IMG/VR virus record: IMGVR_UViG_3300027819_000039
Coordinates: 1 to 34,344 of that record
Origin: a virus
Taxonomy: Duplodnaviria; Caudoviricetes
DNA: 34,344 nucleotides
Direction: 5' to 3' (one strand)
The number at the start of each line of letters is the position of its first letter. The stretch's first letter is position 1. The position numbers and the translations under genes are program-made. The notes beneath the pieces were generated by a model that worked only from the letters and a program-made list of their open reading frames with translations, had not been told where the DNA came from and did no database searches. Shown piece after piece: positions 208 to 23,956 of the stretch.

Positions 208-231
208 GCGCAGCGTAAGAAATTGAAGGAG

Positions 232-260
232 AAGCCCGCCATCGCGCGGGCTTTTTATTT
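232..260 (+). terminator. Intrinsic terminator-like hairpin
   Basis: AAGCCCGC-catcgc-GCGGGCTT followed by a T-rich tail. Confidence 0.75.
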
Positions 261-271
261 GGAGGTCAGCC

Positions 272-943
272 ATGAAGCACATGATCGTTCCGGCCGAGTT
301 CAAGAGCGTGTCCGATGTAGGCGTCTTCTCCGGTTATGCCTCGATCTTCGGCAACGTCGATCTCGGTGGTGACGTCATCGCAAAGGAGGAGCCCTTCAAA
401 GAAATCGTGACGAATCCGGAGGGGAAAGTGCTGACCCTCTTCCAACACGATTCCGGTGGCGGATGGGGTTCGACTGGCGCGGGCGGCCTGCCGATCGGCT
501 TGTCAAGTGTTAGTCAGAACTCAAAGGGCCTGAAGTTCGACGGCCAGCTCGTCATGGATGACCCATTCGTGCAGCGCGTGCACACCCACATGAAGGCGCG
601 CACGCTGACCGGGATGTCGATTGGCTACGACGTCCTGCCCGGCGGAGCGAAGATCCTCGAATCCGGCATCCGGCAATTGAACGCGCTAAAGCTCTGGGAA
701 ATCAGCGTGGTCACCTTCCCGATGAACCCGAAGACGACGATCGATTCGGTCAAGATCGCTCCACAATTCGACACGATCAGAGAATGCGAAATCTGGCTCC
801 GGGATGAGCTTGGTTTCACCAATAGCGCGGCGAAGGAATTCATCGCGCGATTCAAGAAGGCGCTGGTTCGGGATGAACCGACTCGGGATGAGTCTCAGGC
901 GAAAGAAGTGATCGAGTACCTCTCCAACCTGAAATTCTCATAA
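272..943 (+). CDS. HK97-family prohead (maturation) protease
   Basis: Motifs GVFSGYASIFGNVDLGGD, LFQHD, GMSIGY and LWEISVVTFPMN; GGAGG RBS at 261-265. Confidence 0.95.
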   Translation: MKHMIVPAEFKSVSDVGVFSGYASIFGNVDLGGDVIAKEEPFKEIVTNPEGKVLTLFQHDSGGGWGSTGAGGLPIGLSSVSQNSKGLKFDGQLVMDDPFVQRVHTHMKARTLTGMSIGYDVLPGGAKILESGIRQLNALKLWEISVVTFPMNPKTTIDSVKIAPQFDTIRECEIWLRDELGFTNSAAKEFIARFKKALVRDEPTRDESQAKEVIEYLSNLKFS

Positions 944-957
944 CCGAAAGGACCATC

Positions 958-2223
958 ATGGAATTCAACGCTACCGAGATGAAGGAGTTGAACGCGGCGC
1001 TGAAAAAGGCGTTCGACGAAATGCAGGACAACATCAAGCGCGCGCAGGACACCGCAATGAAGGCGCTGGAGGAATCCCGCACCGAGGGCACCCTGCACGC
1101 GAAGACGAACGAGAAGCTGACCGAGTTCAACACGGCCGCGGAGAAACTCGGCGAGACCGTGAAGGAGCTGAAGACGCGCACGCTCGAACTCGAGCAGAAG
1201 CTCGACAAGCGGCCTGTCAGCGAACCGGCGCGCGCGAAATCAATCGGGCAGATCGTCGCCGAATCCGAGGAGTTCAAGGCGGCGTGCGGCAACCGGAACG
1301 CCAAGACCATGAACGCGGTGACCGTCGGCAGCTTCCACAGCAAGGCCAACATCCTCAACGTCAATCCGCCCTCCTCGGTGCAGCCGCTCGTGCAGGGCGA
1401 CCGCCAGCCCGGCATCATCTCCCCGGGCTTGCGCCGGCTGACGATCCGCGACCTGCTCCCGCAGACGACCACGAACAGCAACCTGATCGAGTTCGCGCGG
1501 GAACTGCTCTTCACCAACGCCGCGGCGCCGCAGGGCGGAACCACCAGCCCGGACGAAGTGACGGAAGGCGAAGCGAAGGCGGAGAGCTCGCTCACCTTCG
1601 AATTCGCGTCGACCCCCGTGATCACGATCGCCCACTTCATCCCTGCGTCGCGGCAGATCCTGTCGGACGCCCCGATGCTGCAGGGCTACGTCGACGGGCG
1701 CCTGCGCTACGGGCTCGCCCTCGAGGAGGAGGACGAACTGCTGAACGGCAACGGCTTGCAGGGCACCCTCCAGGGCCTGCTCGGCTACGCCGCGGCCTTC
1801 ACCGGCGGCGCGACCAACCAGACCGCGCTGGATACCCTCCTCAAGGCGCAACTGCAGGTCAGCCTGTCGGAATACTCGATCTCCGGGTATGTCCTTCACC
1901 CGACGGACTGGACGAACATCCTGCTGCTGAAGGACACGACCGGGCGCTACCTGTTCAGCGATCCGCACGGCATGGAGCAGCCGCGTGTCTGGGGCGTCGA
2001 CGTCGTGCCGACGCAGTCGCAAACGCAGGGCACGTTCCTCGCTGGCGCCTTCACGCTGTGCGCGGAAATCTTCGACCGCGAGGACGCGACCGTTCGCGTG
2101 GCCGAGCAGCACAGCGACTTCTTCGTCAGGAACCTGGTCGCGATCCTGGCCGAGGAGCGCGTCGCCCTTGCCGTGTACCGGGCGAGCTCCATGGTGCAGG
2201 GCGCGATCTCCTACGCCGGATAA
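958..2223 (+). CDS. HK97-fold major capsid protein with N-terminal coiled-coil delta domain
   Basis: Motifs RRLTIRDLL, TIAHFIPASRQILSDAPML and DFFVRNLVAILAEERVALAVYR. Confidence 0.97.
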   Translation: MEFNATEMKELNAALKKAFDEMQDNIKRAQDTAMKALEESRTEGTLHAKTNEKLTEFNTAAEKLGETVKELKTRTLELEQKLDKRPVSEPARAKSIGQIVAESEEFKAACGNRNAKTMNAVTVGSFHSKANILNVNPPSSVQPLVQGDRQPGIISPGLRRLTIRDLLPQTTTNSNLIEFARELLFTNAAAPQGGTTSPDEVTEGEAKAESSLTFEFASTPVITIAHFIPASRQILSDAPMLQGYVDGRLRYGLALEEEDELLNGNGLQGTLQGLLGYAAAFTGGATNQTALDTLLKAQLQVSLSEYSISGYVLHPTDWTNILLLKDTTGRYLFSDPHGMEQPRVWGVDVVPTQSQTQGTFLAGAFTLCAEIFDREDATVRVAEQHSDFFVRNLVAILAEERVALAVYRASSMVQGAISYAG

Positions 2224-2243
2224 CCTGGACGCCGCAACTACCT

Positions 2244-2272
2244 TCCCCGGGCCTTCGGGTCCGGGGACTTTT
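2244..2272 (+). terminator. Terminator or stabilising hairpin after the capsid gene
   Basis: TCCCCGGGCC-TTCG-GGTCCGGGGA then CTTTT; UUCG tetraloop. Confidence 0.7.
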
Positions 2273-2283
2273 CGAGAGGTCCC

Positions 2284-2688
2284 ATGGCCCGCGCAGAACT
2301 GAAAACGGCGCAATGTCGCATCAAACCGCGGCGCATCATCGCCGAGGGTTGCGGTGGAACGATCTTCTGGGCGACCCCGACCCGGGCACGCCTGTTGATC
2401 GATGTTGGCGCAGTGGAACTCGTCAACATGGTCCCGGTGCAAGCCGGTCCTGTCGCGACAAGGCCGATCGGCCCGACCGAAGCGCCGGTAGCGGGACCGA
2501 GCGAAGTGAAGGAGCCTCCCGAAAAACGATCCTCCGCCGTCGTCCCGGATGGCCCCTCGATCGATTCTCAGTCGTCGAGCGAGCCTGGGACGGCGGCACT
2601 GTCGTCTGCCTCGGCGGCGGGCCTACTCTCACCGGAGCGCATATCGCCGCCGTCGAAGAAGCGCGGGAGGCCGAAAAAGTCCGGGTGA
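2284..2688 (+). CDS. Small post-capsid protein, Pro/Ser-rich; probable zero-frame product of a frameshifting gene
   Basis: GAGAGG RBS and ATG at 2284; GPxE repeats. The last ~54 codons overlap the next ORF, which is in the -1 frame. Confidence 0.75.
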   Translation: MARAELKTAQCRIKPRRIIAEGCGGTIFWATPTRARLLIDVGAVELVNMVPVQAGPVATRPIGPTEAPVAGPSEVKEPPEKRSSAVVPDGPSIDSQSSSEPGTAALSSASAAGLLSPERISPPSKKRGRPKKSG

Positions 2689-3254
2689 TCGCGGTCAACG
2701 ACGCGTACCTGGTCGCCCCCTTTGCCGACATCTGCTACTTCGCCGACTCGGAATGGTGGGGCTGGCACAGTAGGGGGATCGCGAAGCCGAAGCTCGGGCT
2801 CACCGCCGAGCAGGTCCGCGAGAGGTTCGCGGCATTCGCCGGCGAGAAGTGTTCGATCCAGAATAGCGGTGCCAACGTCGAGGATCCCAGCGTGCATCTG
2901 CTGCGGAACAAGAATTTCCCGGCGCATGGGAGCGGGATTTCGCTCGATCCGGAGTGCCTGATGAGCGGGGGTAATTCCGGCTGGCAGGCGATCAATCTGG
3001 CGGTGCTCGCCGGGGCGAAGACCGTCCTGCTACTGGGCTACGATGCGCGCGAACCGGCATCCGGGCGCGACTCGCACTGGTTCGGCGAGCATCCGAAGCG
3101 GGCGCCCGCGGATGCCTACGCGAAATATCGGCAGGCCTGCAAGGCGGGGGCGCCATCGCTCAAGGCTGCGGACGTGCGCGTGATCAACTGCTCGCCCGGG
3201 AGCGCGATCGACGCGTTCGAGAGGTTGGACCTTGCCCAAGCCCTGCGCCTATAA
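2526..3254 (+). CDS. Maf/DUF115 (MptE-like) putative glycosyltransferase; start uncertain, probably reached by -1 frameshift
   Basis: Motifs TVVCLGGGPTL, VIAVND, GGNSGWQAINLAVLAGAKTVLLLGYD and VINCSPGSAI. There is no ATG/GTG/TTG near the domain start. Confidence 0.8.
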   Translation, partial: TILRRRPGWPLDRFSVVERAWDGGTVVCLGGGPTLTGAHIAAVEEAREAEKVRVIAVNDAYLVAPFADICYFADSEWWGWHSRGIAKPKLGLTAEQVRERFAAFAGEKCSIQNSGANVEDPSVHLLRNKNFPAHGSGISLDPECLMSGGNSGWQAINLAVLAGAKTVLLLGYDAREPASGRDSHWFGEHPKRAPADAYAKYRQACKAGAPSLKAADVRVINCSPGSAIDAFERLDLAQALRL

Positions 3255-4041
3255 CCTGACGCGCCGGGAGATTCACTACCGCCACGACGCCTTCTCGGCC
3301 GGGCTGCGTGCAGCGGGGTACGAGGTCAAGACCGGAGGATGGAACGCCGCGCGCGCGGGCGATGTGTTGCTGATCTGGAACCGCTACGGCCAGTATCACG
3401 AGCAGGCTGGAAAGTTCGAAAAGGCGGGCGGGACGGTCATCGTTGCCGAGAATGGCTACCTCGGCGTCGACGAAAACTGCCACCAGCTCTATGCAATGGC
3501 CCGCCACGGCCACAACGGGGCGGGAGACTGGCCGGTGGGCGGCCCGGAGCGCTTCGCCGCCCTGGGCGTCGATTTGGCCCCATGGCGGGCATCAGGCGGC
3601 CATATCCTCGTCTGCCCGAATCGCAGTTTCGGCATGCCGGGCAACATCATGCCGCCTGATTGGGGCAACGACGTCCGCCGGCGGCTCGCCAAGGTGACGA
3701 AGCGCGAGATCAGGCTGCGGCCGCATCCCGGGAACAGTGCTCCGCGGAAGCCGCTCGCGGAGGACCTGGCGGGTGCGTGGGCGTGCGTAATCTGGTCGAG
3801 TTCGGCCGGGGTGCACGCGCTCGCGGCCGGAATTCCGGTCGTCTGCGAGGCGCCGTTCTGGATTTGCAAGCCCGCCGTGCTCGACCGGGTTGCGGACGTT
3901 GAGGCCCTCGATCTGACGCAGCCGTGGGAGCGGATGGGCGCGGACGCGACCCGGCTGGAGGCGATGCGGCGCCTCGCCTGGGCGCAGTGGCGGCTGTCGG
4001 AAATCCAGTCGGGAGAGGCGTTCAGGAGGCTACTGGTATGA
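3232..4041 (+). CDS. KpsS/KpsC-like (Capsule_synth-type) putative glycosyltransferase 1
   Basis: Motifs VIVAENGY, LRPHPG and AWACVIWSSSAGVHALAAGIPVV; TTG start overlaps the upstream gene. Confidence 0.7.
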   Translation: MPKPCAYNLTRREIHYRHDAFSAGLRAAGYEVKTGGWNAARAGDVLLIWNRYGQYHEQAGKFEKAGGTVIVAENGYLGVDENCHQLYAMARHGHNGAGDWPVGGPERFAALGVDLAPWRASGGHILVCPNRSFGMPGNIMPPDWGNDVRRRLAKVTKREIRLRPHPGNSAPRKPLAEDLAGAWACVIWSSSAGVHALAAGIPVVCEAPFWICKPAVLDRVADVEALDLTQPWERMGADATRLEAMRRLAWAQWRLSEIQSGEAFRRLLV

Positions 4042-4373
4042 ACATAGAAACCGAAATCGCATGGATGGAAAACTTCCGCGCTGCATCGCGCTTGAGTAAG
4101 GATCAGTTTGACTCAATCCTGGCTGTCCAGCGCAGATTGTTCTGTGAGCATCGAGACGCGCTAGAAAACGCTGTCGACCCAGCATGTCCGCAAATAGAGG
4201 GCCATCGGCTTTGCTGGGATTGCGGCGCTATCGTTAGCGAGGTTGAGGAGTGCCCGATCTGCGCGACGGTCGACCATTCGCAATTGCCTCGGATGGCGTT
4301 TGGAATGATGTTAGATGAGCCCGGCGCCCAGGAAGATGTGATGTTCGCATTGACTTTCGGCTTGCCGGTCTGA
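4038..4373 (+). CDS. Hypothetical zinc-ribbon protein (inserted gene)
   Basis: ATGA overlap with the previous stop; CWDCG...CPIC; visibly more AT-rich codons than its neighbours. Confidence 0.65.
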   Translation: MNIETEIAWMENFRAASRLSKDQFDSILAVQRRLFCEHRDALENAVDPACPQIEGHRLCWDCGAIVSEVEECPICATVDHSQLPRMAFGMMLDEPGAQEDVMFALTFGLPV

Positions 4374-5134
4374 TCACCTGCTACGCCCAGCGAGACAAGC
4401 CGAAGTCGCAGCGGGTGCTTGAAGCATTCGCGGCCGGCTGCGGCGGCCGGATGGCGAGCACCACGGCGCGCGAGTTGGAACCCGGCGGGGCAGCTTTTTA
4501 CGGCGTGCGGCCAGGCTGGCTGCACCTGTGGGAACAGGCGAAGCGCGAGGCCCGAGATTGGTTTTACCTGGACAACAGCTTCGTCGACGCCGGTCGAGAA
4601 GCCTATTTCCGCGTCGGGGTCAACGCAACGCAGAGTTGGTCGACGCGGCCCTCGGATGGCAAGCGCCTCGCGCAGCTGGGCGTACGCGTGCAGCCGTGGC
4701 GCCGCACTGGCTCGCACATCGTCGTCTGCCTGCAATCCGAGGACTACATGCGGCCGGTGGCGAACTGGCCCAGTGGCGTGCTCGGCTGGCAGGAACATGT
4801 GCTGCGGGCGCTGCGGCCGCACACCGACCGGCTGATCGTCGTGCGCGGCAAGAAGGCGGACCGGCCGCTCGCGCAAGAGCTGGGCGAGGCCTGGCTGCTG
4901 GTCGCGCATTCGAGCGCGGCCGCGGTCGAGGCGCTGATCGCTGGCGTGCCGGTGATCGTGACCGATCCGGCGTGCGCGGCTTCCGGTTTTTCCTCCGCGT
5001 TCGAGGCGGTCGAATCGCCGCGCCGGCCGGACGGGCGCGAGGAGTGGGCGGCGCGACTGGCGGATTCGCAGTGGACAAGTTCCGAAATGCGAGACGGGAT
5101 GGCTTGGAGGGCGATTTGGCAAAGGGCTGGCTGA
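4370..5134 (+). CDS. KpsS/KpsC-like putative glycosyltransferase 2
   Basis: Motifs WFYLDNSF, VQPWRRTGSHIVVC and AWLLVAHSSAAAVEALIAGVPV; paralogous to 3232-4041. Start is either CTG at 4370 (CTGA overlap) or GTG at 4415. Confidence 0.7.
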   Translation: MITCYAQRDKPKSQRVLEAFAAGCGGRMASTTARELEPGGAAFYGVRPGWLHLWEQAKREARDWFYLDNSFVDAGREAYFRVGVNATQSWSTRPSDGKRLAQLGVRVQPWRRTGSHIVVCLQSEDYMRPVANWPSGVLGWQEHVLRALRPHTDRLIVVRGKKADRPLAQELGEAWLLVAHSSAAAVEALIAGVPVIVTDPACAASGFSSAFEAVESPRRPDGREEWAARLADSQWTSSEMRDGMAWRAIWQRAG

Positions 5135-5670
5135 AAATACCCGGGGTCCAGGATGGCGACCGAACCCTTGCGCAGCAGATTCTCGCCCTACAGCCCGCCA
5201 TCGCCAAGTGCCGCGGAAAGACCGTGCTCGACCTCGGCTGCGCCGAGGGGTTGATCGGCCGCGAGTTCGCCAAGGCCGGCGCCGCGACGGTTGTGGGGAT
5301 CGAGCGCGAGGGAAACTACGTCAGCATGGCGCGCGCGATGTGCCTCGGGTACCGGGTGTCGATCAAGCATGCCGACGTCAAGGACCTGGACCCGGAATTC
5401 CCGATGCCGCACGACATCGTGCTCGCGCTCGGGATCATTCACAAACTGGAGCACCCGGAGATGGGCCTGCGCTTCGCCGCACGGTCCGCCCGGGAACTGC
5501 TGCTGCTCCGGAGTGGACGCGGTTCGGTGAACGGGATCATCCGCGGCAAGTTCAGCCGCAACGAATGCGATTCGGCGAAGCTGATGACGGAGGAGGGATT
5601 CGTGCTGGAGAGGGTCATCGAGGGGCCGCCGGAATTGAAAGAGCCCTGTGAATACTGGCGGCGGCCATGA
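5116..5670 (+). CDS. Class I SAM-dependent methyltransferase
   Basis: Motif I KTVLDLGCAEG, then VVGIE and DIVLALGIIHKL; GGAGG 5 nt before TTG 5116. Confidence 0.85.
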   Translation: MAKGWLKIPGVQDGDRTLAQQILALQPAIAKCRGKTVLDLGCAEGLIGREFAKAGAATVVGIEREGNYVSMARAMCLGYRVSIKHADVKDLDPEFPMPHDIVLALGIIHKLEHPEMGLRFAARSARELLLLRSGRGSVNGIIRGKFSRNECDSAKLMTEEGFVLERVIEGPPELKEPCEYWRRP

Positions 5671-6578
5671 AAACACTGACCGCCTTTTGCGACCTGGCCC
5701 TGTGCCCGGTGTCGTACGATTTCGTCGTCTGGCTCATGCGCGCACTGGTCGAGCGCGACCGCCGCGGGTGCGATCATTTGCACGTCGTCCTGGTGCCGCA
5801 CGAGCAGGGCCTGGGCGGGTTCGCTCGCAACTGGGGCGAACACGACGAGCCTGCAACGCGCTGGCGGCTGTGGCACATCGTCATGGATTGCATTCCGCTC
5901 GCCGGTGCGACGGTGACACTGGCGGCAAGCAAGGCGCAGAGCGCGGCTATCTTCTGGGGCACCGTGCAGCAGCGCGCCGATGCCCAGATGTGGCAGCCGC
6001 AGGAACGCTCCCATCTCGCCGGACAGTTGATAGAGGACTGCCGGGCCGGGAAGGGATTCAAGACCGGTCTGAGGCCGACGGAAGCCGCGCGGCGCTACGT
6101 TGCGCAATGGTTCGACGACGATCCGCGTCCCCTGATCACGCTGACGACTCGTCGGCAGGAAACGCATGCCGACCGCAATTCGTCGCACGACGCGTGGGAT
6201 TCCTTTTACGGTTGGCTCCCGGAATCGAAATACAGCGTTGTTCGGCTCGAGGATTCTCACGACGGTCTGGCCCATTGGGAGGGATGCTGGGCTCAGATTT
6301 CGGCGGATCTGCGCTTGGCCCTGTACGAGCGCGCGGCGCTGAATTGCATCGGCACGAACGGCCCGGCGATCCTGCTCTGGTTCTCCGGTGCGCCGTTCCT
6401 CGAGTTCGGATTCGGGCTCCCCGCGGAAGTCTGGGCCGAGCACATGGAAAAGCACCTTTCGCTCAAGCACGGCGAGCAGTTGCCATGGGCGACGCCAAAC
6501 CAGCGGCTGGTATGGCGGCCGGACACCTTTGCCGTGATGCGCGAGGAGTTCGAGGCGTGGGAACGGGCACGGTCGTAA
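5667..6578 (+). CDS. Putative GT-B fold glycosyltransferase (paralogue A)
   Basis: ITLTTR...RNSSHDAW and LRLALYERAALNCIGTNGPAILL resemble the C-terminal domain of GT9-like enzymes; paralogue at 7719. Confidence 0.55.
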   Translation: MKTLTAFCDLALCPVSYDFVVWLMRALVERDRRGCDHLHVVLVPHEQGLGGFARNWGEHDEPATRWRLWHIVMDCIPLAGATVTLAASKAQSAAIFWGTVQQRADAQMWQPQERSHLAGQLIEDCRAGKGFKTGLRPTEAARRYVAQWFDDDPRPLITLTTRRQETHADRNSSHDAWDSFYGWLPESKYSVVRLEDSHDGLAHWEGCWAQISADLRLALYERAALNCIGTNGPAILLWFSGAPFLEFGFGLPAEVWAEHMEKHLSLKHGEQLPWATPNQRLVWRPDTFAVMREEFEAWERARS

Positions 6579-6958
6579 CCGTGCCGATCTCCGTCGGCGA
6601 ACTGTTCGACAAGATCTCAATCCTGGAGATCAAGTCGCGCCGGATCACGGATGTTGCGAAGCAGGTTCATGTCGAGCGAGAGCTGCTCGCGCTGCGCGGT
6701 GTTGCGGACGCATCGGTCGCACTCGACATGGCGGGCTATCGGGTTCTCGAGGACCTGCGGCTGGTCAACCTCCTGCTTTGGGAGATCGAAGATCGCATCC
6801 GCGAATGTGAACGCAGTGGCGACTTTGGGGCGGATTTCGTCGCGCTCGCCCGCGGCGTGTACATGCAGAACGACCGACGAGCCGCGTTGAAGCGCAGGTT
6901 GAACGAGTTGACGGCTTCGGAGATCGTCGAGGAAAAGTCCTACGCCGGGGCCATCTGA
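6557..6958 (+). CDS. DUF6165-like protein
   Basis: VPISVGELFDKISILEIK...LWEIEDRIR...ARGVYMQNDRRAALKR...EEKSY; GAGGAG before GTG 6557. Confidence 0.8.
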   Translation: MGTGTVVTVPISVGELFDKISILEIKSRRITDVAKQVHVERELLALRGVADASVALDMAGYRVLEDLRLVNLLLWEIEDRIRECERSGDFGADFVALARGVYMQNDRRAALKRRLNELTASEIVEEKSYAGAI

Positions 6959-7722
6959 TGGGGTACGGCGACGATCTTATGGTGTCGGGCCGTGCCCGCG
7001 CCATGCAGAAGACCGATCGCAGAAAGGTGAGGATCGTCTATCGGCGCGGCGGGGCTCGCTGGAGTGCGGTCTGGGATCACAACCCGAGGATCGCGAGATT
7101 CGACGAGCAAGGGGATTTTCAGGAACTGGAAGCGCGCGACGCGAACAACCAGCGTCCATACCACACCGGGAAGACGCCGGAGCGGTGGCTCTACAACCTA
7201 AATTTCCGTCCCGATGTCGGGGAGATATACCTTACCGTTGCGGAGCAGGAATTCGCCAAGCGCAATCGCGTGCAGATCGTCATCGAGCCGACGATCAAGG
7301 CGAACGCGAGCCCGAACAAGCAGTGGGGGCTGGAGCGGTGGAAGGAATTCGTCCGGATCGCGAGCGCCGCCGGGTTTCATCTGACGCAACTCGGTCGTCA
7401 CGGGATGCGACAGATACCGTGCTCCACGTTGCTGACGACGGAAGGATTTCGCCATACCTGCGCGGTGCTGGCGAACGCGAAGGCCTACGTCGGGCATGAG
7501 GGCGGCATGCATCATGCTGCGGCGGCGCTCGGTATTCCTGGTGTCGTGATCTTCGGCGGCTTCATCGCCGTCGAGACGACGGGATACGCGCTGCATCGCA
7601 ACCTCGGCGTTCACGTCGGCGAGGCGTGCGGCATGCGCGCCCCGTGCTCGCATTGCGCCGCGGCGATGGCGGCGATCACGCCCGAGAGGGTGCTCGCCGA
7701 ACTGAAGGAAGTCCTGCGGTGA
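6958..7722 (+). CDS. GT9 (ADP-heptose heptosyltransferase-like) glycosyltransferase
   Basis: Motifs GYGDDLM, PNKQWGLERW and YVGHEGGMHHAAAALGIPGVVIFG. Confidence 0.85.
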   Translation: MGYGDDLMVSGRARAMQKTDRRKVRIVYRRGGARWSAVWDHNPRIARFDEQGDFQELEARDANNQRPYHTGKTPERWLYNLNFRPDVGEIYLTVAEQEFAKRNRVQIVIEPTIKANASPNKQWGLERWKEFVRIASAAGFHLTQLGRHGMRQIPCSTLLTTEGFRHTCAVLANAKAYVGHEGGMHHAAAALGIPGVVIFGGFIAVETTGYALHRNLGVHVGEACGMRAPCSHCAAAMAAITPERVLAELKEVLR

Positions 7723-8432
7723 AAGCGCGTTACGATCTCGGCGACGGCATCGCCGGATTCGATTTTTTCCAGTGGCTCGTCATGGCGCAGGCCCTGGGCG
7801 CGACCGAGGTCGTTTTCGACACGCGCACCGTGAAGACGACGAAATGGCCGGAGAAGACGGTCCGCCGGCGTTTCGAGTCGATCCTGCTGCCGGGCCCGGC
7901 GCTCGCCGGAATGCCTGCCTCGATCGGCACCGAGGGCGAGCGCGTCTGCGGCGTGCATTTCCGCGAGCTAGTCGCCTGGTGGCTCGCCGGCGGACGGTTC
8001 AAGCGCCTGCAATCGGTGCTGCCGCCAGGCCGGGCGCGCTACACGGTGACGCTGCGAAAGACCGATCGGCATCCGACGCGGAATGCGAACGAGGCTGATT
8101 GGCGCGCCTTCGCCAAGGAGATCGGCGCCGTGGTGATCGAAGACTACGACGTGAAGCCGATCCATCTCCACGAGCGCATGGCGCTCTACGCCGGCGCCGA
8201 GATGAATTTCTTCACGAACAACGGCCCGGCGATCTTGTGTCTGCTATCGGAGTACCCGGCCATGCTCTTCGATTGCGGCGTGATGTCGAACCAACTTCGC
8301 AAGTGCGGCATCGAGTACGGCAATCCGCCGCCGTTCTGCCTGCCGCAGCACCGATTGATCTTCGAGAGCGGAGAACTGGCGAACCTGCGCAGGCACTTCG
8401 ACGCATGGAGAAACGATGCCGCGCAAGCGTGA
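7719..8432 (+). CDS. Putative GT-B fold glycosyltransferase (paralogue B)
   Basis: GTGA overlap. YDL...FDFFQWL, TLRK...RNANEADW and RMALYAGAEMNFFTNNGPAIL are shared with 5667-6578. Confidence 0.55.
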   Translation: MKARYDLGDGIAGFDFFQWLVMAQALGATEVVFDTRTVKTTKWPEKTVRRRFESILLPGPALAGMPASIGTEGERVCGVHFRELVAWWLAGGRFKRLQSVLPPGRARYTVTLRKTDRHPTRNANEADWRAFAKEIGAVVIEDYDVKPIHLHERMALYAGAEMNFFTNNGPAILCLLSEYPAMLFDCGVMSNQLRKCGIEYGNPPPFCLPQHRLIFESGELANLRRHFDAWRNDAAQA

Positions 8433-8985
8433 CTTCACAGCCATCATCGAACGGCTGATTCACGTCGGCTGGACCATCAAGTGGATGGCTCGTGAATCCA
8501 ATTACTCCGCGTGGGCGATCCGCAAGGTGCGCGGCGGCAAGGGCGAACCTCCGTATGGGCTGGGCGTATGGCTGATCGATCTTGAGTCGAAGGCCGAACG
8601 AGCCGGATTAACCGAATACTGGCTCGCAGGAAAGCGTAACGGCTGCGCGATCAAACGGCCGCCGCGGCTATACATGCGACGCGGATACAGGCACGGGGAT
8701 GTGCAGGTGGTTCCCACCGACACGAGCAGCGTCGACATTGGCTTTTACCTCGACGCACTGGAGGCAAGCGGCCTGCAACCCTGCGCGATCGGCCGATACG
8801 TCGGCACGAGCGACAGCCAGATTTACGACTGGAAACTGCATCGCACGGCAAGTGCCGGCATGCGCGAACGAATGCGTGACCTGTATCGCCGAATGGACAA
8901 CGCCGGCCTGATCCCGCCGCACAAGTCCCGCGAAAGCGCCCATTGCGAAAGCACGCACATGTATTTTCTGGGAGTTTCTCTTTGA
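8416..8985 (+). CDS. Hypothetical protein with two possible helix-turn-helix repeats
   Basis: GWTIKWMARESNYSAWAIRKVR and GLQPCAIGRYVGTSDSQIYDWK resemble Xre/Cro-type HTHs; coupled to both neighbours. Confidence 0.55.
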   Translation: MPRKRDFTAIIERLIHVGWTIKWMARESNYSAWAIRKVRGGKGEPPYGLGVWLIDLESKAERAGLTEYWLAGKRNGCAIKRPPRLYMRRGYRHGDVQVVPTDTSSVDIGFYLDALEASGLQPCAIGRYVGTSDSQIYDWKLHRTASAGMRERMRDLYRRMDNAGLIPPHKSRESAHCESTHMYFLGVSL

Positions 8986-9671
8986 TCCAACACCAAGGCA
9001 TCTGGCTGCCCGACAACGAGCGCGAGCAGATCGAGTGGATGAACAAGCACGGCGAGCTCGTCAACGGGCGCGGCACGTACCAGATCAAGAAGCTGCGCGC
9101 GGCGATGGAACACGTCAAGCAATTCCGCACCGCGGTCGATGTCGGCTCGCACGTCGGGTTCTGGTCGATGCACCTGGCGCCGAAGTTTGCGCATCTGCAC
9201 GCCTTTGAGCCGATCGCCGAGTATAGGGAGTGCTTCCTGCGCAATCTGCATCCTCAGCTCTCCGCGGGAATCGATGTCGCGCTCTACGATTGCGCGCTCG
9301 GGAACAAGTCCGGCCAGGTCACGCTGTCGCGCAATCCGACGGTGTCGGGGGACACCTGGATCCGCCCGGAGAGATACCCGGTCGCGGCCGGTCGCGTCGA
9401 CGAGGGCGGTGTCAACATGCGAACGCTCGACAGTTTCGAGCTGCGCGACGTGGATTTCCTCAAGGTCGATTGCGAAGGGTACGAGTATTTCGTGCTGCTC
9501 GGTGCCGCGGACACGCTCGCCCGCTGCAAGCCCTGCGTGATCGTCGAGCAGAAACGGGATATGGCCGCGAAGTTCGGGCTGGCGCCGCAGCAGGCGTGCC
9601 GGTTTCTGGAGAAGCTCGGGGCGCAGCCGCGTTGCGAACTGGGCGGCGACTTCGTTTACTCCTGGGACTGA
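8982..9671 (+). CDS. FkbM-family methyltransferase
   Basis: Motifs TAVDVGSHVG, HAFEP, CALG, RTLDSF and DFLKVDCEGYE; TTGA overlap start. Confidence 0.92.
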   Translation: MIQHQGIWLPDNEREQIEWMNKHGELVNGRGTYQIKKLRAAMEHVKQFRTAVDVGSHVGFWSMHLAPKFAHLHAFEPIAEYRECFLRNLHPQLSAGIDVALYDCALGNKSGQVTLSRNPTVSGDTWIRPERYPVAAGRVDEGGVNMRTLDSFELRDVDFLKVDCEGYEYFVLLGAADTLARCKPCVIVEQKRDMAAKFGLAPQQACRFLEKLGAQPRCELGGDFVYSWD

Positions 9672-9673
9672 GC

Positions 9674-9856
9674 ATGGGCGCGTATTGGGGGTTGCTCTTC
9701 GCGTGGCTCGGTACGGCGTGGGGTCCAGCTTCGACATCAGAATCTTTCGATGTCCGCGCGTTTATCGCCTCCATCATCCTTACGGGGATCGTGATGATCC
9801 TCTGGGGCGCAGTATTTCATTGGTGGCCACTTGGCGTTCACCGCGAAGAGGATTGA
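9674..9856 (+). CDS. Small membrane protein (two hydrophobic segments)
   Basis: 60 aa, MGAYWGLLFAWLG...FIASIILTGIVMILWGAVF; fills the gap between genes exactly. Confidence 0.6.
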   Translation: MGAYWGLLFAWLGTAWGPASTSESFDVRAFIASIILTGIVMILWGAVFHWWPLGVHREED

Positions 9857-9858
9857 AC

Positions 9859-10464
9859 ATGATCCGAGTCGTCACCGCTCCAGCCGTCTACCCGGTCACG
9901 CTGGCCGAGGCGCGGCTATGGTGCAAGGCGTTCGACGACATCACGGCGGACGACTCGATCCTGACCATCCTGATCGCCGCGATGACGGGCTATGCCGAGC
10001 ATCGGACCGGGCGGGCGTACGTCGAGCGCACGCTCGAGCTGAACCTCACCGGGTTCAAGAGCTGCATCGAGCTGCCCTGGCCGCCGCTGATCGGCGTGGA
10101 CTCGGTGACCTACGTTAACACGAGCGAGCAAATCGCAACGGTATCGAGCGCAGAGTACGAGGTCGATGCGGTGAGCGAACCCGGCCGCTTGCGGCCGCTT
10201 GCGACAAAATCGTGGCCATCGGTCGGGACGCTATTCAACCCGGTGCGGATCCAGTACCGGGCCGGATACGTTCCCGCGGCGTCGCCCACCGATCTCACCG
10301 ACAACAGCTACCTGCCGGGACACTTGCGGATCTGGATGCAGGCGCGCATCGCAACGCTCTACGGCAACCGCGAGCAGATCATCGATGGCCGCGATGTCGA
10401 GATCCCGCGCGATTTCGCCGATGGCCTGCTCGACTCCCTCGTCGTCGGGACGCGGTTTTTCTGA
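9859..10464 (+). CDS. Head-tail connector (adaptor; gp6/gp15-like, phiE125 gp8 type)
   Basis: Motifs PAVYPVTLAEARLW, AEHRTGRA, IQYRAGY and IATLYGNRE; GAGGA RBS. Confidence 0.92.
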   Translation: MIRVVTAPAVYPVTLAEARLWCKAFDDITADDSILTILIAAMTGYAEHRTGRAYVERTLELNLTGFKSCIELPWPPLIGVDSVTYVNTSEQIATVSSAEYEVDAVSEPGRLRPLATKSWPSVGTLFNPVRIQYRAGYVPAASPTDLTDNSYLPGHLRIWMQARIATLYGNREQIIDGRDVEIPRDFADGLLDSLVVGTRFF

Positions 10465-10471
10465 ATCTGAA

Positions 10472-10607
10472 TTCGACCGGCCGGGCTCCCTGCGACAGCG
10501 CCCGCCTCACCAGCGGAGGACATTTTGACGAACCTGCAGCACTCATCCGGAAAGGACTGTGCGAGAGGGGAATCGGATCGCGCCTCGCATAGTAACGGCA
10601 GGTCGAA
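10472..10607 (+). ncRNA. Candidate structured RNA upstream of the GT8-like gene
   Basis: Closing stem TTCGACCgGCCG / CGGCaGGTCGAA, with internal stems ACTGTGCGAG/CTCGCATAGT and CCTC/GAGG. Confidence 0.45.
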
Positions 10608-10610
10608 CCC

Positions 10611-11369
10611 ATGACCGTGGAATGTGAAATCTTCATCGGGTATGACGCCCGCGAGCGCCTCGCCTGGGAGGTCTGCGCCCGCTCGATCACAGCCCATGCC
10701 TCGCTTCCGCCGCCGATCCGGCCGATCTGCATGCAGGCGCTGCAACTGGCGGGCCTGTATCGGCGGCCGACCGTGCGCGACGAGGTCGGAATCCTGACCG
10801 ACGTGATCTCGCGGGCGCCGATGTCAACCGAATTCGCCATCGCCCGGTTCTTCGTGCCGTTTCTGACCCGGGCGCCGTGGGCGCTATTTTGCGACGCGGA
10901 CTTCATGTTCCGAGCCGACATCGCGGAACTGCTCGAGCACGCCGACCAGCGCTACGCCGTGCAGGTCGTGAAGCACGCGGATTATGTTCCACGGGAAACC
11001 GTGAAGATGGACGACCATCCGCAGAGCGCCTATTCGCGCAAGAACTGGTCGAGCTTGGTGCTGTGGAACATGGCGAGCGCCGGAGCGAAGCGGCTGACCC
11101 TGCATGCAGCGAACACGCAGAAAGGGCTCTTCCTGCATCAATTCTCCTGGCTCGAGGCGCACGAGATCGGGGAGCTGCCGGCCGCGTGGAACTGGCTGGA
11201 GGGTACGAGCGATCCGATGATCGAGCCGAAGGCCGTGCATTTCACCCGGGGCGTGCCGGGCATGATCAAGCCGCCTGTGGCCTACACCTCGGAGTGGTGC
11301 GATCACATCTCGCTGGAGCAAGGTTCGCGGCTGCCGCGCTGGCACGCGCAGCGGAAGGCGGCGGCATGA
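10611..11369 (+). CDS. GT8-like / CDI-like nucleotide-diphospho-sugar transferase (GT-A)
   Basis: Motifs IFIGYDARE, STEFAIARFFVP, DxD in ALFCDADF, YSRKNWSS, WNWLEG and AVHFTRG. Confidence 0.88.
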   Translation: MTVECEIFIGYDARERLAWEVCARSITAHASLPPPIRPICMQALQLAGLYRRPTVRDEVGILTDVISRAPMSTEFAIARFFVPFLTRAPWALFCDADFMFRADIAELLEHADQRYAVQVVKHADYVPRETVKMDDHPQSAYSRKNWSSLVLWNMASAGAKRLTLHAANTQKGLFLHQFSWLEAHEIGELPAAWNWLEGTSDPMIEPKAVHFTRGVPGMIKPPVAYTSEWCDHISLEQGSRLPRWHAQRKAAA

Positions 11370-11737
11370 GATCGTCGGACCTCGATCGTCAGATCAGCGT
11401 CGAACGGCGCACGATCACTAAGGACGCGGTCTACGGCGGCAAGGTCGAGACGTGGGTCCCACTCGTGCCGGTCGGGAGCCCGCCCGTTGCGGCGCGCTTC
11501 TGGGCGCAGGTCCAGGACGTGCTGCCGAGTCGCTCAGAATCCGTGCGCCAGGGCCTCGAAGTCGCCCGCGATCAGGTCCGCATCCGAACCAGGTATCGCT
11601 CGGATGTCACTTCGGACATGCGGGTGACGGTGCACGGGGATGCCGATGTCCTCTATCAGATCGTGGGCGGCCCGGCGATGATCGGCCGCAAGGAATGGCT
11701 GGAGATGGTTTGCGAAAGGTACAGGCCAGCACCATGA
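11366..11737 (+). CDS. Head closure protein (SPP1 gp16-like)
   Basis: ATGA overlap; LDRQISVERR, WAQV and RIRTRYRSDVTSDMRV. Confidence 0.9.
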   Translation: MRSSDLDRQISVERRTITKDAVYGGKVETWVPLVPVGSPPVAARFWAQVQDVLPSRSESVRQGLEVARDQVRIRTRYRSDVTSDMRVTVHGDADVLYQIVGGPAMIGRKEWLEMVCERYRPAP

Positions 11738-11877
11738 AAGCAATTCTCCGCTGGCTCGTCCTGCGCGCGCTGCGTGACGATCGCGTGCGAGAGGAAATCG
11801 CTGCGATCATCCGCACGACGCAGCCTTTACCGAGGCATCGGTCGATCTCGACGAACAAGGCACCGGGGGCTCTATGA
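11734..11877 (+). CDS. Small hypothetical protein (47 aa)
   Basis: ATGA overlaps at both ends. Confidence 0.55.
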   Translation: MKAILRWLVLRALRDDRVREEIAAIIRTTQPLPRHRSISTNKAPGAL

Positions 11878-12128
11878 AAATTCGCATCAAGAGCGAAAGC
11901 GGAATGCCGTGCGCAGGGATAATCACTACAGAAGACGGAACAGAGTTGGAGCATATATGCGCCGTAGATATCTCTATCCGCCCGAATGAATCGATCAAAG
12001 CGCGACTTGAATTTACTTTGGTTCCTCTTAGTATCCTGGCAGAGGCTGTAGTAAGCGAGGAACACTTGCGCGAGTTGGCTGCGGCGCATGGCTTCGATCT
12101 GGTGAAGAAAGAGTCGGGGGTGATCTGA
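11874..12128 (+). CDS. Hypothetical protein
   Basis: Translationally coupled at both ends; more AT-rich codons. Confidence 0.65.
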   Translation: MKIRIKSESGMPCAGIITTEDGTELEHICAVDISIRPNESIKARLEFTLVPLSILAEAVVSEEHLRELAAAHGFDLVKKESGVI

Positions 12129-12637
12129 TGGCTGATGTACACGTTACCGGCCTGAAGGAATTGCAGGCGTTTCTCGATCAGGTGCCCGCGAAGATCGAGC
12201 GGAACGTCCTCCGCGGCGGCCTGCGCGCAGGCGCGGCCCAGGAGCTGCTCCCCGAAGTGCAGGCGAACTTGATGGCTGCCGGAGCCGTCAGGACGGGTGA
12301 ATTGATCGCCGGCATCAAGGTGCAAACGAGCGCGCGCGGCGGCAGGGTCACGGCCTCGGTCGTGTCCACCGGCAAGCACGCGTTCATAGCGAAATTTCTG
12401 GAGTATGGGACCAAGGCGCACTTTATCTCAGCGAAAGCCAACGGATGGTTGAGTTTCGGTGGAGTGTTCGCCAAAAAGGTTTGGAACAAGGGAATTCGCC
12501 CGCGTCCGTTTATGAGACCAGCATTGGACCGATCGGGGCAGGCGGCCGTCATTGCTGCTGCTGAGTATATGAAGAATCGCCTATCCTCTCGGACCGGACT
12601 TGATACGAGCGATGTCCTAATTGAGGGGGATTCGTAA
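12128..12637 (+). CDS. HK97 gp10-family neck protein
   Basis: Motifs VTGLKEL, RTGELIAGI, FLEYGT and RPRPFMRPA. Confidence 0.92.
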   Translation: MADVHVTGLKELQAFLDQVPAKIERNVLRGGLRAGAAQELLPEVQANLMAAGAVRTGELIAGIKVQTSARGGRVTASVVSTGKHAFIAKFLEYGTKAHFISAKANGWLSFGGVFAKKVWNKGIRPRPFMRPALDRSGQAAVIAAAEYMKNRLSSRTGLDTSDVLIEGDS

Positions 12638-13369
12638 GTGGCCTTGTCAAAGGAAGAACTCAGACGGCGCAAGAACGCGGCTCGCAACTTGCGCCGCGCG
12701 ACTGACCCCGCTTACGCAAAGAGGGAGGCGGAAAAATCCGCGCGCTATCGTGCCGAGCATCCTGACAAAGCGAAGGCGTGCCAAGCGAATCATTACCGCA
12801 AGAACAAAGCGGTAGTTCGTGCAAAACAAAAAGCGAGTCGCGCAGCGAATCCGGGACCGCACCGTGCTTCCTCAAGGGCATATAGGCGCGAACACAAGGA
12901 TGAGGTTCGCATTTTCCTAAAGCAATATCGCATCGCAAATGCCGCAAGGATCAAGGCGCAATTGGCCGCTAAGTATCTAGCTAACCGTGAAACGCATCTC
13001 GCGAAGTGCGCCGCCAATTACGCCGCAAATCCGGCCCCTGCAAAAGCGCGCACGAAGGCATGGATAGCGGCAAACCCTGACAGGGTGAGAATCACGCACA
13101 TCAATAGACGCGCCAAGAAAAAGATGACCGGGGCCGGTAAACTCTCGCGCGACATCGCCGCCAAGCTGCTGATGCTTCAACGCGGTAAATGCGCCGTCTG
13201 CAGCTGCGACCTTACCAAGGCGAAGTATCACATGGATCACATCGAGCCGCTTGCTCTTGGCGGACCGCACGAGGATTCAAACATTCAATTACTCTGCCCT
13301 CCTTGCAATCAGGCGAAGCACGCGAAGCCGCCAATCGAGTTTATGCAATCCAGGGGATTCTTGCTGTGA
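12638..13369 (+). CDS. HNH endonuclease 1 (free-standing, homing-like)
   Basis: Basic helical N-terminus; CAVC...HMDHIEPLALGG...NIQLLCPPCNQAKH. Confidence 0.9.
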   Translation: MALSKEELRRRKNAARNLRRATDPAYAKREAEKSARYRAEHPDKAKACQANHYRKNKAVVRAKQKASRAANPGPHRASSRAYRREHKDEVRIFLKQYRIANAARIKAQLAAKYLANRETHLAKCAANYAANPAPAKARTKAWIAANPDRVRITHINRRAKKKMTGAGKLSRDIAAKLLMLQRGKCAVCSCDLTKAKYHMDHIEPLALGGPHEDSNIQLLCPPCNQAKHAKPPIEFMQSRGFLL

Positions 13370-21938: not shown

Positions 21939-22862
21939 ATGAACGTGATTCCCGCGCTCGCGATCACGGACGCGATGCTGACCTATAGCTCCGTCTCGGA
22001 ACCGGATGCGGGATCGCCGAGCACCGAGCCGATCTACGACGCTGGCGTGAGCTACGCACTTGCTGCCGTCGTGATCAGCACGACAACGCATCGGAAGTAC
22101 GAATCTCTGGCCGCAGCAAACCTGGGCAACGCGCTCACCAATACCACGAAGTGGCTCGACATCGGCCCGACGAACAAGTGGGCGATGTTCGATATCCTGC
22201 GGAACACGCAGACCATCGCGCCGTCACCGATCGTCGTGACGATCGTCCCTGGCGAGCGCATCAACTCGATCGCCGTGCTCGGGCTGGACGCGACGAGCGT
22301 CACCGTGATGATGACGGGGCCTGGCTCGCCTGCCCCACTCTATTACACGCACACCGAGGACCTCAACACCCGCGAGGTGCTGAACTGGTACGACTATTTT
22401 TTCGAACCGTTCAGCACGCGACCGGCATTCGCGCTTTTCGATCTGCCGCCGTATTCCAACGGGATCATCACCGTCACGATTACGAACACGGTCGGCGACG
22501 CAAAATGCGGTGCCATCGCGATCGGCACGTTTCAGTACATCGGCGAGGCGCAGCAGGAAGCCGAATCCGAGGAATTGAACTTCTCGACCATCACGCGCGA
22601 GACGACCGGAGAAGCGGTGCTCGTGCAGCGCCGCAGTCTGCCTAAAAGCACGCAGCGCGTGCTCTGCGACAAGTCCCTCGTCAACCAGGTGCGCGAACTG
22701 CGAACGGCCTTGAACGCGACGCCTGCGGTGTGGTCCGCACTCGACGATCAATCGACGCATGAATTCTTCGATGCCCTGCTGATCCTGGGCATCTACCGGC
22801 AATTCCGGATAACGCTCGCCGATCCGACCTGCACGATCAATTTGGAAGTCGAGGAAATCTGA
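21939..22862 (+). CDS. Distal tail / tail-tip structural protein
   Basis: First gene after TMP; beta-rich; WLDIGPTNKWAMFD and WYDYFFEP; ends INLEVEEI. Confidence 0.75.
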   Translation: MNVIPALAITDAMLTYSSVSEPDAGSPSTEPIYDAGVSYALAAVVISTTTHRKYESLAAANLGNALTNTTKWLDIGPTNKWAMFDILRNTQTIAPSPIVVTIVPGERINSIAVLGLDATSVTVMMTGPGSPAPLYYTHTEDLNTREVLNWYDYFFEPFSTRPAFALFDLPPYSNGIITVTITNTVGDAKCGAIAIGTFQYIGEAQQEAESEELNFSTITRETTGEAVLVQRRSLPKSTQRVLCDKSLVNQVRELRTALNATPAVWSALDDQSTHEFFDALLILGIYRQFRITLADPTCTINLEVEEI

Positions 22863-23956
22863 TGACTATCGACGCACTGCCACAAGCCCCTTCGACGTCC
22901 GACCCGACGAATTTTGCGACGGAGGCCGATGCGTTCATTGCCGCGCTGCCGACATTTCGAACGCAGCTCAACACGACGGCGGCAGGGATCAACGCGAGCG
23001 CCGCCGGCGGCGGTGTCACGATCCCCTACACCTTCAGCGCGACGATCACCGACGCCGATCCTGGCAACGGTTACCTGCGGCTATCCAGCGCCACGCAGAA
23101 CGCCTCGACGACGCTGCGTCTTGACCTCCTCGATGCGGCCGCGGTGGACCGCACGGCGACGCTCGCGACGTTCGACGATTCCACGAGCACGGTCAAGGGC
23201 CAAGTCCGCGTTCAGAAGGTCGGGGACGGTTCGAAATGGCTGCTCTTCGATCTCACCGCGATGTCCGCGCCGGGCTCCCCCGATCCGGGCTACCGCAACT
23301 TCACGATTGCGAATGTCGATTCGAGCGCCGCAAGCCCCTTCATCGAGGGCGACGATATCCTCGTCATGTTCACGCGCACCGGCGACAAGGGTGACACCGG
23401 CGCGACCGGCGCGACTGGCGCGGCCGGGAATGCGCTGGTCCTCCTCTCGACGGTCACGGCGAACAACTCGGCGACCGTCGATGTCGAGACCACGCTCGAT
23501 GCCACCTACGACGCCTATCTCCTGATCGCGACCGGAGTCACGATCGCGAACGATAGCGAATCCCTGCGCTGCCAGTTGAAGATCGGCGGGGCCTATCTCG
23601 CCACGTCGACCTATTTCTACCACGCCTCCGTGCCGAATTCATCGGCAGCGACCTATTCCGGTGTGAACGCGGCATTGGCCGGCATGGAAGCGTCGATCCG
23701 CATATCCGGCGCGATCGGCAGCGCGGCCGGCGAGCACATCAACATCGAGGTGAAGATTTCCAATCCTGCCGGGACGACGCTATCGAAAACGATCCGCTGG
23801 AGCGGCGAGGCGATCAACAATTCCGGCGAAATTTACCCGATCACGGGTGCGGGAGGCAATGGCGGCACCGCGGCGCTCACCGGGCTGCGGTTCTTCGCCT
23901 CGCTCGGCAACATTCTGTCCGGGGACTTCCGGCTGTACGGCTACAAGAGGGTTTGA
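22862..23956 (+). CDS. Tail fibre / receptor-binding protein
   Basis: N-terminal ALPQAPSTSDPTNF; short collagen-like GDKGDTGATGATGAAG; C-terminal GLRFF...SGDFRLYG. Confidence 0.8.
   Translation: MTIDALPQAPSTSDPTNFATEADAFIAALPTFRTQLNTTAAGINASAAGGGVTIPYTFSATITDADPGNGYLRLSSATQNASTTLRLDLLDAAAVDRTATLATFDDSTSTVKGQVRVQKVGDGSKWLLFDLTAMSAPGSPDPGYRNFTIANVDSSAASPFIEGDDILVMFTRTGDKGDTGATGATGAAGNALVLLSTVTANNSATVDVETTLDATYDAYLLIATGVTIANDSESLRCQLKIGGAYLATSTYFYHASVPNSSAATYSGVNAALAGMEASIRISGAIGSAAGEHINIEVKISNPAGTTLSKTIRWSGEAINNSGEIYPITGAGGNGGTAALTGLRFFASLGNILSGDFRLYGYKRV

Follow-up and report, generated by a model that had tools for sequence, protein, structure and literature searches.

Glycosylation of virions by phage-encoded enzymes is established for the mycobacteriophages Che8, Corndog and Myrna (PMC12363180, PMC12619734, PMC4351075). 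Their transferases and methyltransferase are encoded in a late or structural context, among the head genes in the case of Corndog, and the glycans are carried on the C-termini of capsid and tail-tube proteins. Maf proteins are candidate nonulosonate transferases for flagellin (PMC5420450). Frameshifts in phages are known from tail chaperones and from capsid or tail extensions with Ig-like domains (PMC5009743). These are the systems with which we compare a block of transferase genes at 2284-11369 of the virus record IMGVR_UViG_3300027819_000039, a stretch of 34,344 bases that is the whole record and is called the window in what follows. The block is fairly probably a late pathway that O-glycosylates the phage's own particle, its first enzyme being dosed and targeted to the capsid by a predicted -1 frameshift. 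Phage-encoded transferases and methyltransferases in a late or structural setting are common to the block and the mycobacteriophages. The block differs in having a Maf-fold first enzyme that is frameshift-linked to the gene after the capsid gene, in having internal Ser-Pro loops as its candidate acceptors, and in its probable proteobacterial host; it is also known from genes alone. No mycobacteriophage appears among the matches listed for three of the block's enzymes, so far as homology to Che8 gp110 or Corndog gp38 is concerned.

The Maf-like gene lacks a start codon, a point absent from the original prediction, which had proposed virion glycosylation from the letters and open reading frames (ORFs) of the window. 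Its frame contains no ATG, GTG or TTG in 2349-2685, yet the family match starts well upstream of 2685, and it overlaps the small gene that follows the capsid gene in the -1 frame. The elements of the overlap are these:

2284..2688, + strand: small post-capsid protein of 134 amino acids (aa), the 0-frame product, with an N-terminal ~50-aa domain, a Pro-rich linker and a basic tail
2509..2514, + strand: Shine-Dalgarno-like AAGGAG, a possible stimulator upstream of the slip site, not conserved in every relative
2520..2527, + strand: predicted -1 slip site C GAA AAA C, with the A_AAA tetramer at 2523-2526
2536..2597, + strand: hairpin, predicted frameshift stimulator (-40.4 kcal/mol, z -3.06; 0 of 200 shuffles as good)
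2526..3254, + strand: Maf/sialyltransferase-fold glycosyltransferase domain in the -1 frame, no start codon; predicted shift product of 323 aa

It is very probable that the Maf-like domain is made through a -1 shift at 2520-2527, as a 323-aa minority fusion. With the same high confidence, most ribosomes would complete the 134-aa protein, its fold domain followed by the basic tail, as a gpFI-like packaging helper; slippage by a minority would therefore fix a low ratio of enzyme to helper. The frame change is not an assembly slip: over 2200-4360, zero substitutions or indels occur in four publicly available groundwater runs, which amount to no more than two data sets and of which two may be the source. 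The absence of an indel in these runs and conservation in relatives together rule out an assembly error. The hairpin is conserved in the four nearest relatives tested, z ranging from -3.1 to -4.9 for the window and those four, and compensatory changes occur at 4 of 19 pairs among five sequences from which the structure was itself derived. Its signal is not significant in D3 or other distant loci. At the slip position the closest relatives carry A AAA AAA or A AAA AAG, and Glu-Lys-Lys is kept there in 52 of the 57 small-protein homologues collected. The window departs from this tripeptide, and its C GAA AAA C is also found in two relatives (L075 and L112) on distant branches. In the linker of the small protein (~2440-2520; homologues P0393-P0449), most homologues have up to three copies of Gly-Pro-Ser/Thr/Ala-Glu before the slip site.

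The arrangement recurs among relatives. The comparative set of 115 enzyme loci, three annotated phage regions included, was reduced by 9 redundant loci and 5 without the anchor motif to 101 scored loci. The overlap class comprises loci in which the N-terminus of the enzyme is spanned by an upstream frame that has a start codon of its own; there are 26 of these in the 101, Pseudomonas phage D3 among them. The enzyme has a start codon in 5 of the 26 overlap loci and in 74 of the 75 others, and 17 of the 26 contain an X XXY YYZ heptamer in phase, compared with 5 of the 75 (Fisher p 6e-9, an optimistic value, the loci being related). In each of the other two phases the count is 0/26, heptamers with six or more A being excluded from this control; like for like, the comparison is 7/26 in phase with 0 and 0. 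Six distinct heptamers are used, and the seven loci with heptamers that are not A-runs have all of them in phase. One member of the class, L010, was placed in it because its anchor was shifted; a start of its own is probable there. L041, L080, L098 and L099 have the overlap and no heptamer, each with a C CCT tetramer in the overlap. Another four loci, L033, L058, L060 and L072, which were counted with the others and not in the overlap class, have an A-run heptamer that precedes the first motif of the enzyme by 34-45 codons, together with a shorter overlap, possibly a second frameshift layout.

In D3, orf6.5 and orf7 have the same geometry with the slip heptamer C CCA AAG, and the annotated start of orf7 removes the enzyme's conserved first motif; in the cultured phage S20 the in-phase heptamer is C CCT TTG. 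Both domains are fused in frame in the L006 protein and in 21 of its best 120 homologues (of 732). A second sample consisted of loci picked by capsid similarity alone. In 11 of the first 12 listed, the capsid gene is followed directly by the enzyme gene, 9 of these being in the overlap geometry (8 with a heptamer; one is the contig of L008), 1 an in-frame fusion and 1 unscored. In the DNA examined of more distant capsid-picked loci, many of which are one clade, the enzyme is found in 0/37. Shifted, fused and stand-alone forms are interleaved on a quick tree with 11 label changes, at least 4 of them forced by strong branches; these changes may be gains or losses, which such a tree does not separate. 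P1 pmgO was rejected as a frameshift case because it has its own ATG, and phiNP because neither a small gene nor a heptamer was seen. In this Citrobacter phage an unannotated Maf-like frame (L154:3501-4031) lies just before the annotated one.

A different route to the enzyme, on an equally glycosylated virion, is improbable by comparison: initiation at a non-standard start at ~2526-2529, transcriptional slippage, or a decayed site from which the domain is barely made. Stand-alone relatives begin exactly at this place, the AAGGAG lies 11 nucleotides (nt) before an ACG codon, and an ACG start has been considered for the Corndog tape measure gene (PMC4351075). Runs of eight A in L001, L007 and L008 would suit transcriptional slippage, and the window's deviation from Glu-Lys-Lys would suit decay. 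A 40-kcal hairpin directly behind the site should, however, hinder initiation; the seven non-A-run heptamers, all in phase against 0/26 in either of the other phases, argue for ribosomal slippage, as does the occurrence of the same C GAA AAA C in L075 and L112 on their distant branches, and the enzyme frame is intact.

The predicted shift resembles that of lambda G/GT and of the Ig-like extensions in that slippage near the end of a small gene would yield a minority fusion that keeps a binding domain and gains a second function. It differs in what is added, which here is an enzyme, and in its place, which here is the post-capsid gene. In the part of the frameshift review covered, no words in 'glycosyl-' occur (PMC5009743). 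The usual G/GT frameshift is separately represented in the window, by an in-phase G GGA AAT at 17168-17174, where the tail-assembly chaperone gene (16794-17201) ends and is overlapped by the -1 frame 17165-17608.

The small domain that the shift would attach to the enzyme has a modelled fold of the gpFI-C/L9-N/DUF7302 type. Residues 1-45 of the fusion model, a homologous domain, align with the C-terminal domain of lambda gpFI (2lsm) at Z 5.5 and a root-mean-square deviation (rmsd) of 1.8 over 45 residues. The lambda FI gene presumably lies directly after the capsid gene, and the C-terminal domain of gpFI is, we take it, the head-binding one. Gene position and, as modelled, the fold of a ~45-residue domain resemble those of gpFI (2lsm) and DUF7302; this domain occupies the N-terminus here but the C-terminus in gpFI, and there is no sequence match to Packaging_FI. 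In the Atlas, leads for the small domain, all below its bar, are DUF7302, Packaging_FI and the same fold in two viral GT4 clusters (template-modelling score 0.76-0.78, a lead only). GpFI itself is a packaging helper that bridges the capsid and terminase-DNA (PMC13595911). The small domain is probably capsid-binding, as its modelled fold and its position suggest, and it is somewhat probable that it would dock the enzyme on proheads as the N-terminal domain of the fusion. Docking is not essential, since in 73 of the 101 relatives the enzyme is made with no small domain attached.

The fold of the Maf-like domain points to a sugar transferase. For a natural homologue, modelled with a predicted local distance difference test (pLDDT) score of 95.9, the top structure is Maf 5mu5 (Foldseek, VIA), at Z 16.9 and rmsd 3.1 over 194 aligned residues with 16% identity. 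MptE 8sd5 (Z 12.2), a Campylobacter sialyltransferase (Z 11.0) and then mammalian sialyltransferases come next, four sialyltransferase families in all following MptE, and thiamine pyrophosphokinases score Z 6-8. The gene product matches PHROG 4603 at E 3.5e-35. PF01973 reaches only E 0.02 with the window's protein and is present in 29 of the best 120 of 732 homologues. Searches of PDB sequences gave nothing significant for the Maf-like alignment, the GT8-like protein, the 10-sequence KpsC-like alignment or the small domain. The catalytic fold and, by analogy, a protein Ser/Thr acceptor are what the enzyme has in common with the flagellin transferases (5mu5, PF01973). It differs in consisting of the central domain only, ~240 aa that align with residues 256-513 of the 632 of 5mu5; in the structure alignment the flanking N- and C-terminal domains of full-length Maf are absent, and the small viral domain replaces them. 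Its neighbours differ too: they are head and neck genes in 87/96 loci, with no flagellin nearby.

The fold that is shared with MptE and the thiamine pyrophosphokinases leaves room for a Maf-fold protein that is a pyrophosphokinase, in a block that modifies phage DNA or makes a small molecule, and phage transferases that glycosylate DNA are known (PMC12619734). This reading is highly improbable: Maf lies 4.7 Z units above MptE, four sialyltransferase families follow, the genes are late and not close to replication genes, and no partner for base modification turned up among the scanned proteins. For the reading as a virion-glycosylating enzyme, the first step would probably be addition of an acidic sugar, likely from a host CMP-activated (cytidine monophosphate) donor, to Ser of exposed Ser-Pro loops.

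The block that follows runs without interruption in orientation, as do the head and neck genes of the operon around it. Every gene of 2284-11369 is on the + strand, and most abut or overlap. Beyond the elements listed above it consists of the following:

3232..4041, + strand: KpsC-like glycosyltransferase 1, His-Pro motif present
4038..4373, + strand: 111-aa ORF with Cys pairs, without assigned function; RING-finger hint only, E 0.06
4370..5134, + strand: KpsC-like glycosyltransferase 2, DUF6716 E 2e-4, no His-Pro, probable CTG start
5116..5670, + strand: class I S-adenosylmethionine (SAM) methyltransferase, PF13649 E 4e-9
5667..6578, + strand: GT-B fold, GT9-like glycosyltransferase of 303 aa, model pLDDT 96.2
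6581..6958, + strand: DUF6165 protein, PF19662 E 8e-7
6958..7722, + strand: GT9 (heptosyltransferase-like) glycosyltransferase, PF01075 E 5e-7; TIGR02193 E 1.6e-6, below cut-off
7719..8432, + strand: paralogue of 5667-6578 (blastp E 1e-12, 28% identity), probably GT-B
8416..8985, + strand: 189-aa ORF without assigned function; no Pfam, PHROG or NCBIfam match
8982..9671, + strand: FkbM-family methyltransferase, PF05050 E 1.5e-17; TIGR01444 above cut-off
9674..9856, + strand: 60-aa hydrophobic ORF, hydropathy peak 2.44
10611..11369, + strand: GT8-like GT-A glycosyltransferase with an Asp-Ala-Asp motif and annotated phage relatives

Seven transferase-like genes (one Maf fold, two KpsC-like, three GT9-like and one GT8-like) are thus accompanied by DUF6165 and two methyltransferases. 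The original prediction of about seven glycosyltransferases with DUF6165 and two SAM methyltransferases, co-oriented and mostly coupled, is upheld by Pfam, PHROG and fold matches. Checks of the kind that it asked for gave glycosyltransferase matches: Maf at Z 16.9; heptosyltransferase WaaF 1psw with the 5667-6578 model at Z 14.4 (rmsd 3.6, 242 aligned; GT9 3tov Z 14.2); and KpsC 8fux with the KpsC-like family profile of 132 sequences at E 1.1e-4. The two KpsC-like proteins are 36% alike and belong to a viral family of 5,092 clusters at E 0.001, and PF05159 is matched by 3 of the 132 family members (E 0.01). The CTG start of the second seemingly overlaps the preceding stop (4370-4373), where relatives have ATG. 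The GT8-like protein has no Pfam match of its own; a 39%-identical homologue in L008 is above the PF01501 cut-off. Profile or fold matches connect these proteins with the KpsC/KpsS beta-Kdo (3-deoxy-D-manno-oct-2-ulosonate) transferases and the GT9 heptosyltransferases, from which they differ as large separate viral families outside any kps or waa context. Nonulosonate, Kdo and heptose as donors would be read across from distant folds at 10-16% identity, from which the donor sugar is not deducible. It is somewhat likely that the KpsC-, GT9- and GT8-like enzymes would extend the glycan and that the two methyltransferases would cap it.

The placement of the block between capsid and head-closure genes stands as originally described, except that a connector gene (9859-10464) lies inside it, so that the GT8-like gene is situated between connector and head closure. 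That HK97-like phages normally have almost nothing at this place was overstated: D3 has its Maf-like gene there, and in Corndog four modification genes separate portal from protease (PMC4351075). The claim that the enzymes have no transmembrane segments fits hydropathy peaks of at most 1.59 for all of them except the GT9 protein (2.17), and takes no account of the 60-aa ORF. In line with the original claim, scans of 29 and 22 proteins, in a record that is 55% complete, revealed no flippase, Gtr (GtrAB included) or nucleotide-sugar gene. The block has no match to a GtrABC-type cassette (flippase GtrA, bactoprenol transferase GtrB, multi-membrane GtrC) and contains no multi-membrane protein.

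Position argues for a target on the virion. A recognised virion gene lies within 3 kb on the same strand in 87/96 non-redundant Maf-like loci, which is the synteny survey that the original prediction had proposed. That prediction is supported in part: its enzyme families, late-operon position and virion target are backed by folds, by synteny and by two further lines, the linkage of the first enzyme to a domain of capsid type and the presence of Ser-Pro loops in virion proteins. An order of Maf, KpsC, KpsC, methyltransferase, GT9 and FkbM recurs in many loci, and L156 and L158 additionally carry both GT-B paralogues. Downstream partners vary (GT2-, GT4-, GT8-, GT9- and GT-D-like proteins, sulfotransferase, radical SAM and several methyltransferases), which fits a variable glycan built on a fixed first step. 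In Caulobacter phage CcrColossus a similar block follows the tail genes. A head-closure search of viral contigs found no relative.

The same enzymes might instead modify the host surface (lipopolysaccharide core, Kdo linker, capsule or flagellin), for serotype conversion or superinfection exclusion, their late-operon site being accidental. Their closest solved relatives are indeed the lipopolysaccharide and capsule enzymes WaaF, WaaC and KpsC and a flagellin transferase; the phage is probably temperate, the block includes a hydrophobic 60-aa ORF, and cyanophage transferases have been interpreted in this way (PMC12801897). We regard it as unlikely. The head and neck position in 87/96 loci speaks against accident, expression of the first enzyme hinges on translation of the post-capsid gene, no flippase or Gtr gene is among the scanned proteins, and no sigma-70-type promoter was seen in 1-13000 (a weak test; promoter and terminator scans were at or below chance). 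Modification of the host surface would also leave the Ser-Pro loops of the virion proteins unexplained. These loops, the candidate acceptors under the virion reading, lie in capsid, connector, closure and tail proteins:

958..2223, + strand: HK97-type major capsid protein, candidate glycan acceptor, Pfam Phage_capsid E 3e-43; Ser197-Pro (nt 1546)
9859..10464, + strand: head-tail connector, phrog_442 E 9e-17; inserted Ser142-Pro loop (nt 10282)
11366..11737, + strand: head-closure protein, PF05521 E 1e-17; inserted Gly-Ser38-Pro loop (nt 11477)
21939..23956, + strand: two genes after the tape measure gene, candidate acceptors with three Gly-Ser-Pro motifs (nt 22014, 22326, 23276); no NCBIfam match

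The capsid insertion is one of 9 residues, placed by alignment between residues 160 and 161 of HK97 gp5 and found in close relatives also; it lies 8 residues before the position of HK97 Lys169, which we take to be the E-loop cross-link residue. In D3 the E-loops are exterior and cross-linked through Lys178 (PMC12749128). In enzyme-positive loci, Gly-Ser-Pro motifs are located in short insertions at fixed loops and exceed expectation from composition 4- to 13-fold in five classes of virion protein, most strongly in neck proteins: observed and expected numbers are 37 and 8.7 for capsid, 41 and 3.1 for connector, 14 and 1.3 for closure, 14 and 1.7 for terminator, and 23 and 3.1 for tail tube. They are not raised in terminase (5/3.9), protease (2/2.2), chaperones (0/0.7) or the block enzymes (12/8.4), nor in loci without the enzyme, a small control mostly of one clade. 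Counted per protein, connectors have the motif in 32/70 loci with the enzyme and 0/9 without (p 0.009), and capsid proteins in 32/76 and 1/12 (p 0.03). These counts carry no correction for relatedness and are set against few enzyme-negative loci, and another site possibly contributes to the capsid count. D3 has Gly-Ser-Pro in capsid, terminator and tail tube.

Some of this would suit a glycan confined to a minor or transient protein (the Ser/Thr/Pro-rich small protein, or neck and tail parts) with a role in assembly and not as a surface coat. The motif excess is strongest in neck proteins, and most homologues of the small protein have Gly-Pro-Ser/Thr-Glu copies in their linker. GpFI helps packaging (PMC13595911), and the main text of the D3 capsid study mentions no glycan (PMC12749128). 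Set against this are the Ser-Pro insertion that the capsid protein of the closest relatives gained in an exterior loop and the number of enzymes, nine of which suggest a complex glycan; a restriction to minor proteins is, on balance, distinctly unlikely. On the preferred reading of a glycosylated particle, the coat would, speculatively, alter surface charge, adsorption or recognition; the shielding, adhesion or evasion originally proposed would be no less speculative as its purpose.

A number of observations weigh against this reading. Glycan, enzyme activity and shift product are all predictions from gene sequences. The window's own slip site has only an A_AAA tetramer, 9 nt from the hairpin; it is a weak variant, for A_AAA ranks last in strength among the six tetramers active in E. 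coli, although it is common in insertion sequence (IS) elements (PMC4066793). Nine of the 26 overlap loci have no heptamer. The Maf fold is common to pyrophosphokinases, with MptE 8sd5 at Z 12.2. For the small domain gpFI is tied with ribosomal L9-N and GINS (Z 5.5-5.8), no Pfam, PHROG or PDB sequence match is found, and the 73/101 relatives that encode the enzyme without this domain show that docking is dispensable. In P1 (pmgO/pmgP) and in three enterobacterial loci the genes are not part of a head operon. A stand-alone Maf-like relative, PAJU2 ORF010 (L013:6001-6570), is annotated as 'structural protein', a label whose basis was not found; Corndog's transferases, unlike a structural protein, act from the cell and not in virions (PMC4351075). 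The Gly-Ser-Pro excess does not extend to gp10 and portal, and for closure, terminator and tail tube the comparison protein by protein falls short of significance (p 0.16-0.34). The Ser-Pro loops are also patchily distributed: some enzyme-positive phages do not have them, D3 has neither the capsid nor the closure insertion, and L108 has the capsid insertion yet no enzyme in the 2.4 kb examined. The main text of the cryo-electron microscopy study of the D3 capsid has no word in 'glyc-' (PMC12749128).

The window was found in groundwater metagenome runs, and no RNA data sets containing it are listed. Its completeness is 55% (CheckV), so that about half of the genome is missing. Genes are arranged in the order portal end, protease (272-943), HK97-type capsid (958-2223), transferase block, head closure, neck and tail, and lysis; integrase and early genes follow the lysis genes on the opposite strand. 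The integrase gene makes the phage probably temperate, and the host is probably a proteobacterium, because those homologues of its genes that bear a taxon name are from assemblies of Burkholderiales, Sulfuritalea, Gallionella and Sulfuricaulis. Within the late operon, residues 1-132 of the tail terminator (13366-14877; ~135 aa in relatives) are fused in frame to a tail-fibre-like domain, for a total of 503 aa, and there are two HNH endonuclease genes (12638-13369 and 15418-16143). A third methyltransferase gene (Methyltransf_24, E 2e-7; 24174-25040, - strand) opposes the late operon and is moron-like. A gene for a LapG-like cysteine protease (26036-26422; E 1e-10, below cut-off) lies in the lysis region. 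In P1, the Maf-like gene of pmgO-pmgP-ppp-pmgQ (L153:2680-5238) stands beside a Ser/Thr phosphatase and another glycosyltransferase gene, outside the head operon.

Virion glycosylation is known from the mycobacteriophages; the frameshift-linked Maf design was not found described. A literature search that covered few subscription papers and no supplements gave no account of this frameshift, of Maf-fold enzymes acting on virions or of the Ser-Pro signal. A wider reading, the chances of which we put as even, is that virion O-glycosylation is widespread in proteobacterial phages, D3 included, with a repeatedly inserted Ser-Pro signal, a flagellin-type initiator aimed by an FI-like domain, and recoding that sets its dose. 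If this is true, virion glycosylation would reach beyond a few mycobacteriophages to a large number of phages (an estimated ~1,300 matching IMG/VR stretches). A function would be provided for a common small post-capsid gene and for the 'alpha-2,3-sialyltransferase' genes of D3-like phages, and one more conserved phage frameshift would be added to those known, one that is annotated in D3 as two separate genes. Because the residues and the slip site can be specified exactly for a cultured phage, the role of head-operon transferases becomes open to direct testing. The finding would also bear on the antigenicity of therapeutic phages and on the behaviour of particles in soil and groundwater.

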